The notes: a model not told the origin generated them from the sequence alone. Positions 9,078 to 28,590 are shown, counted from the first letter of the stretch. The stretch is 28,590 bases of DNA from Herpetosiphon gulosus (GCF_039545135.1 NZ_BAABRU010000004.1:386427-415016), one strand, 5' to 3'. Numbers and translations: made by a program.

Positions 9078-9222
9078 AATTTTTAGCGCCCACTAAAAAC
9101 CCAACAACTAAATAACAACTAAATAATTGTCGCATACGTGTCGCATGCCATTCACGGGATTGTCGCGCTGAGAAAGCGAAGCTGAGTTCAGTTCCAAATT
9201 GAACCAGCTTAGGAGGCTCCCA

Positions 9223-9681
9223 GTGTACAATTCATCAACGATTAGCCGCCGCATCGCTCTCGCCTTCGTTACCTTCGGCCTGATTTTTGCCAGTTTTGTT
9301 TACACTGCCCTCACAAGCAGCCAAATACCTCAATTTGATACACCAGCCGCCGCCAACACCGCTTGGCAATGGGGCGACATCGAAGGCATTACCGTCACCC
9401 AACAACTGCAAACTGCCCCACTCAACACCGCTTGGCAATGGGGCGACATCGAAGGCATTACCGTCACCCAGCAACTGCAAACCGCCCCGCTCAACACTGC
9501 TTGGCAATGGGGCGACATCGAAGGCATTACCGTCACCCAGCAACTGCAAACCGCCCCACTCAACACCGCTTGGCAATGGGGCGATATCGAAGGTATTACG
9601 GTCACCCAGCAACTACAAACCGCTCCACTCAACACCGCTTGGCAATGGGGCAACATCGAATCAAGCAAAGGGATGCTTTAG
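9223..9681 (+). CDS. Small secreted/membrane-anchored protein made of five tandem 23-aa repeats 'TAWQWGDIEGITVTQQLQTAPLN'
   Basis: AGGAGG at 9211-9216 lies 6 nt before GTG 9223. The track's TTG 9199 is in the same frame. The N-terminus 'ISRRIALAFVTFGLIFASFVYTALTSS' is a signal/anchor. It is followed by 4.4 copies of a 69-bp unit. Confidence 0.6.
   Translation: MYNSSTISRRIALAFVTFGLIFASFVYTALTSSQIPQFDTPAAANTAWQWGDIEGITVTQQLQTAPLNTAWQWGDIEGITVTQQLQTAPLNTAWQWGDIEGITVTQQLQTAPLNTAWQWGDIEGITVTQQLQTAPLNTAWQWGNIESSKGML
9355..9661 (+). repeat. 69-bp near-perfect tandem repeat (about 4.4 copies), in-frame inside the CDS
   Basis: The unit 'AACACCGCTTGGCAATGGGGCGACATCGAAGGCATTACCGTCACCCA(A/G)CAACTGCAAAC(T/C)GCCCC(A/G)CTC' differs only at a few synonymous positions between copies. 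Confidence 0.9.
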
Positions 9682-9700
9682 TTGAAGAGGAGAACGCGGC

Positions 9701-10333
9701 ATGGATACAACAACCTTTCCTGAATTTTGGCACTCCATCCCGCGTGACATTGCCGCTTTGATGCCAAACTCACCTGAATTAGCCTATGATGCCCATTTGA
9801 TCTTAAATTCGATCGCTCGCCATTCACATGAACTGTATCAACATTCGCTGCGGGTTGGCCACATGGCTTGGCATATGAGCCATAGCCTCGGCTTACCAAC
9901 CTATGAACGACAACAAATTTGGTTGGCAGCCCTGTTGCATGATTGTGGCAAAACCCGCATGCCGCGCAGTCTATTGTTCCGGCCAGCAGCAAACAGCCCA
10001 GTTTGGGAAGTTGCGCTCTATCAACAGCATGTCAACGAAGGCATTGAGGTATTACGCGCTTATCCCACCCTGCACTTGCTAATTCCCTTAGTGGCTGAGC
10101 ATCACGAACGGATCGACGGCACAGGCTTTCCACGTGGCAGCAAATACCCTGCCCGTAGCGCCCAAATTGTGGCGTTGGCCAATACGCTCGACCATTTGCG
10201 CACCCAACCAAACAGCCTTAGCCCCAATCTGCAAGGCTTAATCGATCAAGCAATTGATCAAGATTGGGATTCAGCAGTGGCCGCGACGGCGCTTAGTGCT
10301 TGGCAGCAAACGAAACTGGCTGAGGTTGGATAA
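9701..10333 (+). CDS. Stand-alone HD-GYP-like domain protein (variant 'GFP' instead of 'GYP')
   Basis: The HD metal motif 'ALLHDCGK' and 'EHHERIDGTGFPRG' correspond to the HD-GYP signature HHExxDGxGYP. It is 210 aa with no receiver or sensor domain. ATG at 9701. Confidence 0.7.
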   Translation: MDTTTFPEFWHSIPRDIAALMPNSPELAYDAHLILNSIARHSHELYQHSLRVGHMAWHMSHSLGLPTYERQQIWLAALLHDCGKTRMPRSLLFRPAANSPVWEVALYQQHVNEGIEVLRAYPTLHLLIPLVAEHHERIDGTGFPRGSKYPARSAQIVALANTLDHLRTQPNSLSPNLQGLIDQAIDQDWDSAVAATALSAWQQTKLAEVG

Positions 10334-11141
10334 TTGTCTCTTGCCACTCGGCGGCTTGTTGTCGCAAGCGACTCCGCACCAAGGCCAAGGCATCAGCCGA
10401 TTGATCTGCCGCAATCCAGCATCGCCCTAAACGTTGGGCCACCGCCGCCGTCGTGCCTGAACCACAACAAAGATCGGCTACCAGATCGCCCGAATTGCTT
10501 GCTGCGAGAATAATTCGCTCCAGCAAGCGTTCGGGCTTTTGGGTAGGGTAGCCCAAACGCTCGGCAGCCATGGGGTTGAGCATCGGAATATCCCAAACAT
10601 CATCGACGGGAGTGCCATCGGGATGCGGCAAATAACGCTTGCCAGCCGCCGAACGAATGCCTGCCTTGGCAAAACCACTACTGGCTTTATATGGTTGGCG
10701 CATCGCTTGCAAATTAAACGTCCAATGCTGCGGATGTTTGCTATACCACAAAATCGTATCGTGTTTATGCGAAAAGCTGCGCCGCGCTCGCCCGCCGCCG
10801 GTGTAATGCCAAATAATTTCGTTGCGAAAACACTCAAAGCCCCAAGTATGATCGAGCAACACTTTGGCATAATGCACCGCCCGCCGATCAAGGTGCAAAA
10901 ATAATGAGCCATGCTCAGCGACAATTTGGCGAGCAGCCAGCAAACGTTGCTCAAGCCAGGCCAAATATTCAGTTAAGCCACCTTGCCAGCGATCATCAAA
11001 AGCTCCAGCGCTATCGGCAAACACCCGACCAGCAGCAAACGGCGGATCAAGATACAACAGATCGATCGATTGGGGCGCGATTGAGCCGATAACATCGAAC
11101 ATTTCGCCTTGAATAAGCTGATTTGGTTGCTGCGAATTCAC
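10293..11141 (-). CDS. Beta-class N6-adenine/N4-cytosine DNA methyltransferase (N6_N4_Mtase family)
   Basis: Motif IV 'LDPPFAAG' lies near the N-terminus and AdoMet motif I 'DLCCGSGTTAAVA' near the C-terminus. This is the beta-class order IV...I. GTG start at 11141. The 3' end overlaps the convergent HD-GYP gene by about 41 nt. Confidence 0.85.
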   Translation of the reverse strand: MNSQQPNQLIQGEMFDVIGSIAPQSIDLLYLDPPFAAGRVFADSAGAFDDRWQGGLTEYLAWLEQRLLAARQIVAEHGSLFLHLDRRAVHYAKVLLDHTWGFECFRNEIIWHYTGGGRARRSFSHKHDTILWYSKHPQHWTFNLQAMRQPYKASSGFAKAGIRSAAGKRYLPHPDGTPVDDVWDIPMLNPMAAERLGYPTQKPERLLERIILAASNSGDLVADLCCGSGTTAAVAQRLGRCWIAADQSADALALVRSRLRQQAAEWQETIIQPQPVSFAAKH

Positions 11142-11157
11142 GCCTAGCCCTTCTAAA

Positions 11158-11922
11158 CTATGCTAATGATTGAATCAACAAATTGGCCAAGCGTTCGCGA
11201 CTGGTCGTTTCAAGTTGATAGAGATCTTGCTCAATATTGGTTTGGGTCATCAGCAAGCCATGGTGGCCTGCCTGCAATAAACTATATTCACGGCTCAACA
11301 CCTGCTGGCCTTGATACAGCACTGCATTGAAAATCGTGGTGGTATGCGGCTGGCTCAGCAGTTCGATCAAGCGGATGGCTGCTTCAGCGGAAACACCTGA
11401 ATTGCCCAAAGCTTGCAGGGCTGCTTGCTCCTCGCTTTGTTCAACTAAGCTACGGGCTTCGGCCAAAACATTGCTTTGAATATGGAAGCGCAAACTTAAC
11501 TCCGCACTTCCCGCATAGCCACACCAATCGAGGCTGTAATTTGCTAGCTGCTCCAACGAACCAAAGGCCTGCAAGCGCTGCATATCAGAATTGAGCAGCT
11601 CGTGGAAAACCACCGAATCGGCGTGTTTATGCCCAAATGCCTGCAACACCGACCCATTCCCTTGCACATGATGGATGATCAAACTGCGTTGGGGGTAAGC
11701 ACAGGTTGCGACCAAAGCCAGCGGGTCGCGGGCGATCATCAACATGCCATCTTGATCAGATTGAGCAAGCTGGCGTTGGCGTAATGCAGCTTCGCCAAGC
11801 TGGATTAATTGAGCATGCTCAGCAGGATTTTGAGCTGGGGCAACTCCCATAATGCTTGCTGCACTAACCACAGCACAAATTGTCACAATTTCAGCGCGGC
11901 TTAACTCAACCACTGTGTGCAT
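11158..11922 (-). CDS. Hypothetical protein, co-transcribed upstream of the methyltransferase
   Basis: A long ORF with no recognisable motifs. GGAGG lies 5 nt upstream of ATG 11922. The track start, TTG 11934, is in frame. Its stop is 16 nt before the MTase start. Confidence 0.5.
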   Translation of the reverse strand: MHTVVELSRAEIVTICAVVSAASIMGVAPAQNPAEHAQLIQLGEAALRQRQLAQSDQDGMLMIARDPLALVATCAYPQRSLIIHHVQGNGSVLQAFGHKHADSVVFHELLNSDMQRLQAFGSLEQLANYSLDWCGYAGSAELSLRFHIQSNVLAEARSLVEQSEEQAALQALGNSGVSAEAAIRLIELLSQPHTTTIFNAVLYQGQQVLSREYSLLQAGHHGLLMTQTNIEQDLYQLETTSRERLANLLIQSLA

Positions 11923-12031
11923 ACCAACCTCCAACGATCAATAAAGCTCACTCCATTGTAACGGCAAAATGGCTACGGCCATGCTAAAATGCGCTGAGCA
12001 TGCGACTCAACTAATACAAGGAGATGGTTTG

Positions 12032-21885: not shown

Positions 21886-21895
21886 GTGTTGCTTT

Positions 21896-22000
21896 CCCTC
21901 ACCCCCTAGCCCCCTCTCCCGCCCAGCAGGCGAGGGGGAATTCCTCCATCATGAACCATGGAACGCCCCACGCCCGCCGCAGTGGGAGAGGGGTGAGGGG
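21896..22000. repeat. GC-rich nested palindromic element (family copy D)
   Basis: 'CCCTCACCCCCTAGCCCCCTCTCCCGC' is identical over 27 nt to 409-435. 'GCGAGGGGGAATTCCTCC' parallels copy A. It ends '...CGCCCGCCGCAGTGGGAGAGGGGTGAGGGG'. Confidence 0.8.
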
Positions 22001-25704: not shown

Positions 25705-25710
25705 TTTGGT

Positions 25711-25745
25711 ATACCGCTAATTTTTAATTAGCGGTATATTTATTC
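25711..25745. terminator. Palindromic hairpin at the GC/AT composition boundary; likely bidirectional terminator
   Basis: 'ATACCGCTAATT'-TT-'AATTAGCGGTAT' is followed by 'ATTTATTCTAATT'. It lies 6 nt after the GT4 stop and immediately before the stop of the - strand island gene. Confidence 0.6.
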
Positions 25746-26618
25746 TAATTCGTAAGAGAGTATTTCAAAATAAATAAATGATAGCCAATTAAGAAAGTTC
25801 TCATTAACTATTCCAAAAAATTCATTAGGATCAACTATTGATCCTGAATCAAAACTCTCATTTTTCCCTGTTAAAAAATGAAAATATTTATTCCTAATAT
25901 TAATAATCATTTTAATAATATGTCTATTAGTTGTTTTTATTTGAGAGTAAGGGGTTTTAGAATACACATTAGCCTCTAATACTTTTTCTATAGTTTTATA
26001 ATAAATTTCACCCCACGAAGGATGTTGAGATAATATATTAAAATCTACTGTAACATCTAGATTTGTGTCTTCTGTAATATCTTTCATAAAATTATCAAAT
26101 ATAGTTAGTTCTTTTTTATCCTTTGCAAAAAAAATTTGTAGTTTTTCAAAGGTTCCTTCAAAATTCTTAGTTCTAGATGCCCACATTAACGGAAGACAAT
26201 AAGATATTCTTTCTAAAATTCTATAGATATGAACAAATGATGATACATGGTTATTTATTGATTTTTGATAAAAATAATGACAAAATTCAAAAAATATCTC
26301 TCTATGAAACATAAAATTCTTTGAACGACTTCTCATTACGGCTTTATCAAATTCTATAATTGTGAATGGATTAATAGAATTTTCAATAATATTCCATGAA
26401 AATCTTTCATTTTTCTTAAAAGGTAAAATGAAATAATTATTCCTTTGTTTTAATATCTTATTAGAGAATTCACATTTAATATCCAAAAATCCAGATAGCA
26501 ATCTAACATTTAATGCCTTATATATAATATTAGATGATATTTGTAACGTAAAAGGTAGTTTATTAGAAATTCTTGGCGTTAGCATTTCTATTGGTGTAAA
26601 TCTTAATTGAATAGACAT
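25740..26618 (-). CDS. Hypothetical protein, partner of the DUF262-like protein (possible HEPN-like or DUF1524-like effector; unassigned)
   Basis: A 292-aa ORF encoded in very low-GC DNA. Its ATG 26618 follows a GAGG SD that overlaps the stop of the upstream gene (8-nt gap). It contains 'IINIRNKYFHF' (R-N-x3-H) and 'SQHPSWGE'. No family is confidently recognisable. Confidence 0.55.
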   Translation of the reverse strand: MSIQLRFTPIEMLTPRISNKLPFTLQISSNIIYKALNVRLLSGFLDIKCEFSNKILKQRNNYFILPFKKNERFSWNIIENSINPFTIIEFDKAVMRSRSKNFMFHREIFFEFCHYFYQKSINNHVSSFVHIYRILERISYCLPLMWASRTKNFEGTFEKLQIFFAKDKKELTIFDNFMKDITEDTNLDVTVDFNILSQHPSWGEIYYKTIEKVLEANVYSKTPYSQIKTTNRHIIKMIINIRNKYFHFLTGKNESFDSGSIVDPNEFFGIVNENFLNWLSFIYFEILSYELE

Positions 26619-26626
26619 TTAAAACC

Positions 26627-27649
26627 TCATTCCATTTCATTTAATAGTGATAGCATTTCTATCTCTTCTTTATTGATAAAATTATTAAAATTACTAATAA
26701 AATAATCAACAGACTTCCTTCTTTGAGAACTTAATCTTATTTTTGATGTATCAAATCCAGAAAACGTTTTCTCAAATTCCTTAACGGTTTGAGAAAAATC
26801 ATTAGGATCAATATTTATTAAGTATTGAAAATTCCTTCTTATCCCGACACAGAATCCTATTAGATTATTAAGATTCTTAAACCATTCCATATTATACTCA
26901 TTATCTACAACCATTTTATATATCAATTTAGTAATTTCATTAAACTCTAAATCATCACTTGTTATATCAGAATTTATTATCTTATCAGTTATTAATTCAT
27001 TCATTTTACTTTCTATTATTTTCTGATTTTCAATATTAGTGGAAGCACTTAAAAATGCAATATATGCATTAATAATATCTGATTTATTAAAAGATTCCTT
27101 TAAATTAGATTTATCTTTTTCGTTTTTTAGCGATAGAGAAAGGTTATCAAAATTATATATATTACCCATCAGTATTTCTATTTGATGTCTAACTGTCATT
27201 GGTCTTTGGCCATTATTTAGTGTAATCATTCTATAGAGTAAATTATCCATCGATTCACAAATTATAATATTAAGAAATATTCTTTTATTTCTATTTACTT
27301 TTTCATTATCTTTAATTCTATCAAGTGTATTTAATCTTTGTATACCATCAAGAATAAAAGCGTTATGTATCTCTCTATTTACATATTCCTCTATTTGGTT
27401 ATCGTTGTAATTATTTATAATGTCAATTTTATCAATAAATGCAATTGTTAGTGGAGGCATAATGCACCCATCAATTATATCCTTTTCTAATCTTTTATAA
27501 AATCTAGCTGATTGTAATTTTCTTTGTATATCCAATTTGTTTATCAATTCAATTAAGTTATCTATAGCAAAACTATAATTTGTAGAACCTGTTATGAATT
27601 TCCCTTTAATTACATCATCATAATCAATAGAAGAAATTTTGATTGACAT
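26627..27649 (-). CDS. DUF262 / ParB-like (GmrS-N-terminal-type, 'DGQQR') domain protein
   Basis: A 340-aa protein. 'KLDIQRKLQSARFYKRLEKDIIDGCIMPPLTIAFI' matches the (P)xYQR...DI..G.PI..I block. 'AFILDGIQRLNTL' matches (I/L)DGQQRLTT. 'YRMITLNNGQRPMTVRHQIE' matches F..lN.G..L...E. GAGGTG lies 5 nt before ATG 27649. Confidence 0.65.
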   Translation of the reverse strand: MSIKISSIDYDDVIKGKFITGSTNYSFAIDNLIELINKLDIQRKLQSARFYKRLEKDIIDGCIMPPLTIAFIDKIDIINNYNDNQIEEYVNREIHNAFILDGIQRLNTLDRIKDNEKVNRNKRIFLNIIICESMDNLLYRMITLNNGQRPMTVRHQIEILMGNIYNFDNLSLSLKNEKDKSNLKESFNKSDIINAYIAFLSASTNIENQKIIESKMNELITDKIINSDITSDDLEFNEITKLIYKMVVDNEYNMEWFKNLNNLIGFCVGIRRNFQYLINIDPNDFSQTVKEFEKTFSGFDTSKIRLSSQRRKSVDYFISNFNNFINKEEIEMLSLLNEME

Positions 27650-27685
27650 AAATTCACCTCATAGTATTTATCTGAATACTTAAAT

Positions 27686-27714
27686 ACTATACACTAGAAT
27701 TTTTATATGTCTAC
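27686..27714 (-). promoter_or_regulatory. Candidate sigma70-like promoter for the island operon
   Basis: On the - strand, TAGACA (-35, complement of 27709-27714) is followed by a 17-nt spacer and TATAGT (-10, complement of 27686-27691). This is about 35 nt upstream of the DUF262 gene's SD. Confidence 0.3.
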
Positions 27715-27744
27715 AGGTTAATTATGTAAATTACGGAGTAAAGG

Positions 27745-28590
27745 CTTAAGATTGTATACTTACGCCTGATGTGAGTTAGGCATCGTTGATGACCGTAAAG
27801 GTAAGCACATCGATCCCAAATCGTGCCCGCAACACCGCTTTCACGACCAAATGCGTCACCTTGCTGGCAATGCGGGTTACCAAGCCTTCCACGGTTTTGG
27901 CCAACAAGCGCTCACTATTGCGTCCGGTATTTTGCAGTTCATGAAACGTCCCTTCGATCCGTTCACGGATCGACCCCAGCAGGGCATCAAATGGAGCGGG
28001 ATTCCGCCGTTGGTTCTGGCGTTTGGCCGTCCAGATGCGATTCTTGGTTGTGGCGCGAACATCGTGTTGCCACCGTTCACCCAGAAACCCTTTATCCGCC
28101 CACACGTCGGCATTGCTGATCTGGTCCAAAATTTCGTCCGCAGCGGCCCGCTCATCGGTATGGGCTGGGACGAGGTCATAGGCCACCGGAATGCCATCGA
28201 GGGTCGTGAGCATGACGAGTTTATACCCAAAATAATGCAGTTTGCGACTGACACAATAGCCATAGCTCGCGCTTCCGGCGAAATCGCTGCGGGTTTTCGG
28301 GCGCGTATAGCCCATCACGGGAATCGGTTTGGTATCAAGGATGACCTGTGGGCAGTCCACCATGGCCCATGACGTGAGCCATGAGCGGCGTAAGGGTTCG
28401 AGCAGACCACACAGGCGGCGGGCATGGCGATTGAATTGGCTTTGGTGGGGCAGGGTTGGAAACAGATCACCATGGGTTGCCCGCAGAAAGCCTAAGAAGC
28501 CGCGTTCGCTGGGAAAGGGGACGAGATCCATCGCCAACAGGATGGTCAGCACCTCGCTTGGCGCGAGGGCTGGCGCAGGCCCTGGGGAAG
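27745..28590 (-). mobile_element. IS982-family (IS5 superfamily) insertion sequence, 3' end and most of the transposase; truncated by the window edge
   Basis: Composition returns to about 55% GC at about 27745. The transposase ORF is at 27776-28590 and remains open to the window end. It contains 'ILDTKPIPV', 'SASYGYCVSRKLHYFGYKLVMLTTLDGIPVAYDLVPAHTDER' and 'WADKGFLG', which match the IS982 DDE blocks (IDSFPIP / GY.A.K..YFYG.KxH / DKGY). The terminal inverted repeat cannot be defined without the other end. Confidence 0.7.
27776..28590 (-). CDS. IS982-family DDE transposase (5' end beyond the window, or GTG start at 28552)
   Basis: See the mobile_element entry. The frame remains open upstream of the GTG at 28552 to the window end. 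Confidence 0.7.
   Translation of the reverse strand, partial: SPGPAPALAPSEVLTILLAMDLVPFPSERGFLGFLRATHGDLFPTLPHQSQFNRHARRLCGLLEPLRRSWLTSWAMVDCPQVILDTKPIPVMGYTRPKTRSDFAGSASYGYCVSRKLHYFGYKLVMLTTLDGIPVAYDLVPAHTDERAAADEILDQISNADVWADKGFLGERWQHDVRATTKNRIWTAKRQNQRRNPAPFDALLGSIRERIEGTFHELQNTGRNSERLLAKTVEGLVTRIASKVTHLVVKAVLRARFGIDVLTFTVINDA

Follow-up and report, generated by a model that had tools for sequence, protein, structure and literature searches.

We analysed a 28,590-nucleotide (nt) stretch of the Herpetosiphon gulosus genome (GCF_039545135.1, NZ_BAABRU010000004.1:386427-415016; hereafter the window), in which an islet of low G+C content holds two genes, termed A and B, both on the minus strand. 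We propose that this islet is a short-form defence cassette of the Dazbog family and thus a subtype of a known system, not a new category (probability about 0.7). Dazbog is a two-gene anti-phage system that consists of DzbA, a DUF262 protein, and DzbB, with verified examples from B. mycoides GOE9 and B. cereus FORC_013 (Millman et al. 2022). A first-pass annotation of the window, made from the sequence alone, knew of no named system with the composition of the islet. Dazbog proved to be one, since protein A is detected by the PADLOC model of DzbA (PDLC03835) with E=6.3e-40, and PD-T4-2 is another that is listed with DUF262 and HEPN domains.

A DzbA-like protein and its conserved partner

We compared protein A with DzbA at the level of the single sequence and of the family. 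Residues 3-310 of its 340 amino acids (aa) aligned with positions 2-310 of the 393-position DzbA model (135.7 bits). As reference and positive control we used the canonical Dazbog genes of a B. cereus plasmid (DzbA 5e-120 and DzbB 3.8e-48 in PADLOC), and experimentally verified DzbA and DzbB sequences were taken from the supplement of Millman et al. The A family aligned with the canonical B. cereus DzbA over the full length by hhalign (probability 99.4%, E=9e-22), and A itself shared 31% identity with the verified DzbA of B. mycoides GOE9 by BLASTP over a core of 178 aa (E=1e-21). Four blocks were invariant in 31 members of the A family: Q42-R43, D101-G102-x-Q104-R105, N145-N146-G147-Q148 and H155-Q156-x-E158. 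The Pfam family PF03235 (GmrSD_N, that is, DUF262) was matched at E ≤ 0.01 by 25 of 31 homologues of A with about 50% identity, the best at 1.6e-6, and several homologues carry a precomputed PF03235 annotation. More than 1,500 relatives of A were found at E ≤ 1e-3, the best 120 listed having about 340 aa and, for the most part, 46-56% identity; H. gulosus proteins identical to A and B are on record. An AlphaFold2 (AF2) model of A had a mean predicted local distance difference test score (pLDDT) of 81. We conclude that A is a clear DzbA homologue of the DUF262/ParB lineage.

Protein B gave no match in scans of Pfam, NCBIfam and PADLOC, and a word-indexed homologue search returned only three relatives. 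We considered and rejected the idea that B is an orphan: the three-relative result was an artefact of divergence and was overturned by tblastn and by an exhaustive hidden Markov model (HMM) search. Genome loci were found with an alignment-based scan of the A family, a single-sequence query with A having given nothing, and in about 78 of the 80 loci fetched via A, tblastn detected a B homologue directly downstream of the A homologue. The exhaustive profile search yielded at least 370 B-family clusters at 50% identity (E ≤ 1e-3), nearly all of them stand-alone proteins of 280-310 aa. What had first been described as a partner of no recognisable family is instead a conserved family that is coupled to short-form DzbA.

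The B family is divergent, with a mean column identity of about 29% in alignments of 50-73 sequences. G43, E111, F128, Y132, R133, E136, Y140, P143, E170, N243 and H247 were nevertheless invariant in one or both alignments, and R242 was near-invariant (at least 90% of members). These residues include two motifs, F128-x3-Y132-R133-x2-E136 (FxxxYRxxE) and R242-N243-x3-H247 (RNxxxH), the latter reading R-N-K-Y-F-H in the H. gulosus protein and representing an Rx4-6H motif of the HEPN type. An AF2 model of B (pLDDT 90.2, predicted template modelling score 0.89) had a helical domain preceded by a small alpha/beta part at the N-terminus; a Foldseek search of the PDB with this model found nothing, and its matches to HEPN-RNase folds were weak. 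A few B-family members gave sub-threshold Pfam matches to Ribonuc_2-5A (3.7e-4), HEPN_Apea (0.069) and Csm6 HEPN (0.11), and a few gave sub-threshold matches of 1e-3 to 9e-3 to Csx1, Csm6 and Cas13-ApeA. A profile of the C-terminal part of B matched the RNase domain of IRE1 over the RNxxxH region with E of about 1. No described HEPN family matched B significantly by profile, and PDB sequence searches with B-family profiles returned nothing meaningful, Dally-like and IRE1 entries appearing at E ≥ 0.04 over the C-terminal part. Nuclease families were likewise absent from the Pfam matches of A and B at E ≤ 1, and neither DUF1524 nor a nuclease was among the 25 Pfam families most often matched by 73 B-family members at E ≤ 0.5. 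The tests for HEPN likeness are each weak and agree in direction, which suggests that the helical domain of B is HEPN-like, and the conservation of RNxxxH suggests that B may be a HEPN-type RNase. Of the pairing of a DUF262 sensor with a HEPN-like RNase effector that the first-pass annotation had offered, the conserved RNxxxH motif stands, whereas the HEPN matches themselves stayed below threshold. Separately, the full-length B-family profile gave a weak, non-significant PDB match to PycTIR (8jsk, E=0.027) on the N-terminal alpha/beta part, residues 29-119.

Direct reading of the sequence bears out the co-orientation of the two genes and the overlap at their junction: the TGA of A overlaps a GAGG placed 6 nt ahead of the start codon of B, and A and B are therefore arranged for coupled translation. 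In almost all related loci the A-B gap falls between -44 and +14 nt. The promoter previously assigned to the pair fared less well. A site resembling a sigma-70 promoter is present upstream of gene A and matches 10 of 12 positions, but 20 such sites were found, against 17.9 +/- 4.1 expected in shuffled AT-rich sequence, which is chance level. A 34-nt stretch in the 3′ part of B (25801-25834) is 79% identical to one in the 3′ part of A (26778-26811), the two encoding 'DPNEFF...' and 'DPNDFS...'; this similarity is probably due to chance in AT-rich DNA.

Relation of the partner to DzbB and alternative readings

We next compared the short partners with the long form of DzbB, for which we built an alignment of 59 sequences from 80 metagenome loci carrying canonical DzbA. 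Both motifs of B recur in the long form. FxxLY[RQ]xxE was present in 67 of 70 short partners and 53 of 65 long DzbB proteins, and [IV]RNxxxH in 69 of 70 and 64 of 65, respectively. The order of the two motifs is the same, and they are separated by 118 residues in the short form and by 95 in the long form. The verified DzbB proteins contain both of them (...FYMLYQVIE... and ...IRNLYVH...). In a profile alignment of the B and DzbB families at relaxed thresholds, the two families were co-linear across both motifs, with only the motif segments aligning. Long DzbB proteins also gave weak HEPN matches of their own (HEPN_Apea 0.0017, HepT-like 0.0078 and RiboL-PSP-HEPN 0.073). HEPN_MAE_28990, a family found in operons with ParB and methylase genes (Anantharaman et al. 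2013), was rejected as the identity of DzbB because a Pfam scan of nine long-form DzbB proteins and one short-form partner gave no match to it at E ≤ 1. In the literature searched, we found no paper that states a link between Dazbog and HEPN.

Several observations count against placing the islet in the Dazbog family. B did not match the PADLOC DzbB model (PDLC03836) at E ≤ 1, and just one of 73 B-family members did so (E=2.6e-4). Comparison of the short-partner family with the 59 long DzbB sequences by hhalign gave probabilities of 2-8% and E values of 0.0045-0.02, which are not significant. The link was tried by hmmsearch and by hhalign, with DzbB alignments of 3 and 59 sequences, at full length and with the C-terminal halves, and none of these comparisons was significant; nor was BLASTP of B against verified DzbB. 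The homology of B and DzbB is thus unproven at the sequence level, and their common motifs could be convergent. Protein A itself matched PF03235 not even at E ≤ 1 and had no NCBIfam match, and its DUF262 assignment therefore rests on close homologues and on the DzbA model. The earlier identification of the 340-aa protein as DUF262 accordingly holds in that its three sequence blocks are invariant and most homologues match PF03235, but a direct match is missing. Foldseek matches of the A model in the PDB were headed by BrxU, Noc, KorB, CTP-bound ParB, SspE and Srx, none of them significant (best E=0.12, probability 0.75), and a PDB sequence search with the A-family profile returned no entry at E ≤ 1, not even BrxU or SspE. 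The locus also lies outside any dense defence island, in a window of mainly housekeeping genes. Finally, the reported toxicity of dzbB deletion described below argues that the toxic component may be DzbA rather than its HEPN-like partner, which runs counter to a simple scheme in which a sensor activates an RNase.

What is known of canonical Dazbog allows a mechanism to be sketched. Dazbog protects B. subtilis against phages; mutants of phage SPR that escape it have lost a C5 cytosine methylase, expression of this methylase renders Dazbog toxic and makes Dazbog cells sick, and infection of Dazbog cells at high multiplicity of infection (MOI) leads to collapse or arrest of the culture, from which it was proposed that methylated DNA triggers abortive infection (10.1101/2022.08.27.505566). 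A deletion of dzbB could not be transformed (10.1101/2022.05.11.491447). By analogy, A and B of the short form would form a resting complex, in which the DUF262 domain of A would read a feature of invading DNA through NTP binding or hydrolysis in its DGxQR pocket. For canonical Dazbog, this trigger is most likely cytosine methylation by a phage methyltransferase. The resulting switch would unleash a toxic activity and arrest the infected cell, with the HEPN-like centre of B contributing as an RNase. B probably also restrains A at rest, because the canonical dzbB deletion is not transformable. For the short form we infer the defence function, the trigger, the RNase activity and the identity of the toxin alike, and we put this specific mechanism forward tentatively, at less than even odds.

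The same data can be read in other ways. The near-absence of signal between the partner families, whose HMMs give one another's members about 0 bits (against about 90-105 bits between the A families), would be expected if B were unrelated to DzbB. A DzbA-like sensor would then have recruited a different effector by module swapping, with motifs that converged in helical RNase-like domains. The hhalign probabilities of just 2-8% fit this reading, as do N-terminal parts that differ in length and predicted content. However, both families carry the two motifs in the same order, in the C-terminal half and at similar spacing, the relaxed-threshold alignment is co-linear over both, and gene position and coupling are identical, so we consider an unrelated partner unlikely. 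Pairing is strict on either side, short A occurring with short B in 75 of 76 loci and the long forms of A and B with each other in 65 of 67.

The failure to transform a dzbB deletion bears on a further reading, in which the pair is an addiction module of the toxin-antitoxin (TA) type. A would be the toxin, acting by NTP-dependent binding or nicking of DNA or by consuming NTP, and B the antitoxin, with RNxxxH in a regulatory or structural role that involves no RNA cleavage; phage defence would be a by-product of the release of A. The deletion is indeed listed with those of the known antitoxins psyrA, shosA and rmrA (10.1101/2022.05.11.491447), the genes are tightly coupled in a mobile, AT-rich cassette, and comparative analyses count ParB-fold domains among the DNases (PMC3710099). 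What makes this reading quite unlikely in our view is that R242, N243 and H247 vary little or not at all in a family of about 29% mean identity and recur as the same motif in long DzbB, as is typical of a catalytic centre; a toxin-first order and similar protein sizes are also unusual for classical type II TA, and canonical Dazbog protects against phages. Very unlikely, in turn, is a type IV-like restriction without abortive infection, in which A would recognise phage DNA that is modified and cut or block it, either by itself or together with B as a DNA nuclease or nickase. A has the DUF262 pocket motifs of GmrSD-type enzymes, BrxU heads its fold matches, the changes by which phages escape canonical Dazbog lie in a DNA methylase, and several loci adjoin restriction-modification (R-M) genes. 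However, neither A nor B has a DUF1524/His-Me, PD-(D/E)xK, HNH or other DNase signature, canonical Dazbog shows an abortive-infection phenotype (collapse or arrest at high MOI and methylase toxicity), and both the predicted fold of B and its motif favour HEPN, whose known examples target RNA.

The Dazbog-family reading has consequences for annotation. The short form represents a large sister subtype, with no fewer than 370 partner clusters and more than 1,500 DzbA-like proteins (E ≤ 1e-3), and annotation that requires both Dazbog genes would probably miss it because the PADLOC DzbB model does not detect the partner. FxxLY[RQ]xxE and RNxxxH, being all that short and long partners have in common, are the likeliest functional residues and suggest that the partner is a HEPN-type RNase, a hypothesis that covers the whole Dazbog family. 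For the H. gulosus genome itself, the islet would be an ordinary small mobile defence cassette beside an insertion sequence (IS) element. A rather unlikely variant is that the short form is a distinct defence system, in which a DzbA-type ParB/DUF262 NTPase works with an exchanged, unrelated or anciently related HEPN-like RNase. If this is true, the DzbA scaffold would be a general sensor of modified DNA, or of other nucleic acid, that drives different effectors, and the trigger of the short form might differ from cytosine methylation. It would also be the first hint that both Dazbog partner families are HEPN RNases.

A mobile, AT-rich islet and its surroundings

The G+C content was 0.22-0.26 in each 300-nt window of the composition profile between about 25750 and 27700 and 0.48-0.57 on both flanks; the two-gene module had 0.237 and the remainder of the window 0.507. 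The abrupt drop in composition (about 24% versus about 51%), the IS982-like neighbour and the hairpin at the islet border, all of which the first-pass annotation had described, were each recovered in our analysis (Table 1). The hairpin, with its perfect 13-nt arms, is likely a bidirectional terminator. The IS982 transposase gene abuts the high-coordinate edge of the islet, and the far end of this element lies beyond the window end at 28590. We found no second copy of IS982 within the window, no flanking direct repeats or attachment-like sites that would delimit the islet, no tRNA in the window and no Rfam RNA in or around the islet. A decaying remnant or pseudogene was rejected as an explanation, since both open reading frames (ORFs) are full length and keep all family-invariant residues. 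We conclude that the islet is a horizontally acquired, self-contained cassette. The foreign defence islet that had been suggested is hence upheld as to its foreign and self-contained nature, but the window holds no dense defence island: its content is mostly housekeeping and includes DnaK, a hybrid histidine kinase, glycosyltransferases and two CAP-domain proteins, with a single N6/N4 DNA methylase gene 15 kb from the islet.

Table 1. Features of the islet and its borders in window coordinates
Feature	Coordinates	Strand	Description or basis
Low-G+C islet (~24%) holding the two-gene cassette	25745..27745		Composition profile
Hairpin	25710..25738		Perfect 13-nt arms, 25710-25722 and 25726-25738; between gene B stop (25740) and stop of convergent GT4 glycosyltransferase (25704)
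Gene B, 292-aa partner	25740..26618	-	Small N-terminal alpha/beta part and helical HEPN-like domain (predicted)
A-B coupling junction	26616..26629	-	A stop TGA 26629-26627 overlaps GAGG 26628-26625; B ATG 26618-26616
Gene A, 340 aa, short-form DzbA-like protein	26627..27649	-	ParB/Srx-like DUF262 NTPase-type N-terminal domain and helical C-terminal domain (predicted)
GAGGTG, Shine-Dalgarno-like	27655..27660	-	5 nt upstream of gene A ATG; direct sequence reading
Promoter-like TAGACA-16-TATAGT	27686..27713	-	Upstream of gene A; 10/12 match, plausible, without statistical support
IS982-family transposase gene (context, outside the system)	27776..28552	-	NCBIfam NF033520, 156 bits (cut-off 130), E=1.2e-45; Pfam DDE_Tnp_1

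Related loci show the same pattern. In all 72 with enough flanking sequence, the module was lower in G+C than its flanks (mean 0.33 versus 0.455). There was no conserved third gene, the 136 nearest neighbours belonging to 133 Pfam families; the commonest were phage integrases, helix-turn-helix regulators, HNH, HpaII and EcoRV endonucleases, C5 methylases, IstB, KAP NTPases and TIR proteins, with housekeeping genes mixed in. An L. plantarum plasmid carries the cassette beside an IS5 element and HsdR, and ten IMG/VR viral contigs carry it as well. Hosts are distributed patchily over at least eight phyla, including Bacteroidota, Pseudomonadota, Bacillota, Acidobacteriota, Cyanobacteria, Verrucomicrobiota and Chloroflexota. 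The closest relative (locus L167, 3154-4826; A 74% and B 62% identical) adjoins aconitase and HMGL-like genes and has 0.25 G+C within DNA of 0.55 G+C. Given this differing context, the AT-rich cassette has inserted at more than one chromosomal site. We conclude that the A-B pair is not a core gene pair and behaves as mobile defence DNA; conserved core status outside defence islands, which the first-pass annotation had named as a reason to doubt a defence role, does not fit the varied neighbourhoods of the homologues.

Methylase genes recur near cassettes of both forms. Canonical Dazbog on plasmids of B. cereus and Moritella (L083, 1-1407, and L086, 420-3866) adjoins pairs of a C5 cytosine methyltransferase and a restriction endonuclease, and the neighbours in two of the short-form loci (L003-L080) include two HpaII endonuclease and two C5 methylase matches. 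Such C5-methylase neighbours are curious given that the reported Dazbog trigger is phage C5 methylation at CCGG, and they raise the question of how self-methylation is tolerated.

Elsewhere in the window, the N6/N4 DNA methyltransferase (PF01555, E=6e-48) lies in the region 10293-11934 on the minus strand and adjoins a 258-aa ORF (11158-11934) without a Pfam match; the two could form a small type II restriction-modification pair, at a distance of some 15 kb from the islet. The CAP-domain genes encode two tandem paralogous secreted proteins (PF00188; 22393-23409 and 23485-24513) with stretches of DNA that are 76-81% identical. A GC-rich repeat of 53 nt occurs at 404-456 and 21891-21943 (87% identical) with an internal CCCTC...GAGGG symmetry and may be an intergenic element similar to repetitive extragenic palindromic (REP) sequences. 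At 9285-9698, a 138-nt unit is present in five overlapping register copies with 69-nt spacing, that is, with a period of 69 nt (23 codons). The copies are 65-96% identical to the reference copy and cover most of an ORF at 9199-9681 on the plus strand, whose product is a repeat-containing protein of unknown kind.

Comparison with known systems

With GmrSD, BrxU and SspE, protein A shares the DUF262 module, predicted to be ParB/Srx-like, with its QR, DGxQR and NxGQ motifs, and BrxU is the top, though non-significant, fold match of the A model. These enzymes differ from the pair in that neither A nor B has a DUF1524 or other DNase domain, the effector appearing to be HEPN-like instead. The absence of a fused nuclease had been recognised from the outset, and that of any fused or adjacent DUF1524 nuclease is supported by the lack of any PF07510 match of either protein at E ≤ 1. 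The split GmrSD-like type IV restriction system offered on that basis has to be abandoned, as neither protein has a His-Me/DUF1524 domain, or indeed a DNase domain of any kind.

HEPN families in operons with ParB proteins have been noted before (Anantharaman et al. 2013). Against established HEPN RNase modules (Csm6/Csx1, AbiV, the C-terminal domain of AbiA, HEPN-MNT toxins and the RNase L/Ire1 KEN domain), B gave no significant profile match, and it is set apart from them by its additional motifs (E111, FxxxYRxxE, P143 and E170) and its N-terminal alpha/beta part. PD-T4-2 (Vassallo et al. 2022), listed with DUF262 and HEPN (PF18735) domains (PMC10952713), resembles the islet in combining a DUF262 protein with a HEPN-type domain in the absence of DUF1524. 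However, A and B match no PADLOC model of PD-T4-2 at E ≤ 1, DzbA being the sole PADLOC match of A, and B has no PF18735 match; the relation is one of analogous architecture, not of membership.

The comparison with Dazbog itself is the closest. The short form differs from it in that A has about 340 aa rather than about 394 and shares just some 31% identity with verified DzbA across its core, in that B has about 295 aa rather than the 360-390 or so of DzbB, with a different N-terminal part and beyond the reach of the DzbB HMM, and in that short and long forms seldom mix partners, pairing strictly in the loci counted above (75/76 and 65/67). Phage protection is known for the long form, whereas defence by the short form is predicted. 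The two forms nevertheless share a two-gene operon with the DUF262 gene first and a helical partner directly downstream, an A protein that is homologous to DzbA from end to end, the partner motifs FxxLY[RQ]xxE and RNxxxH in the same order, and a mobile, taxonomically patchy distribution that is often close to R-M genes.

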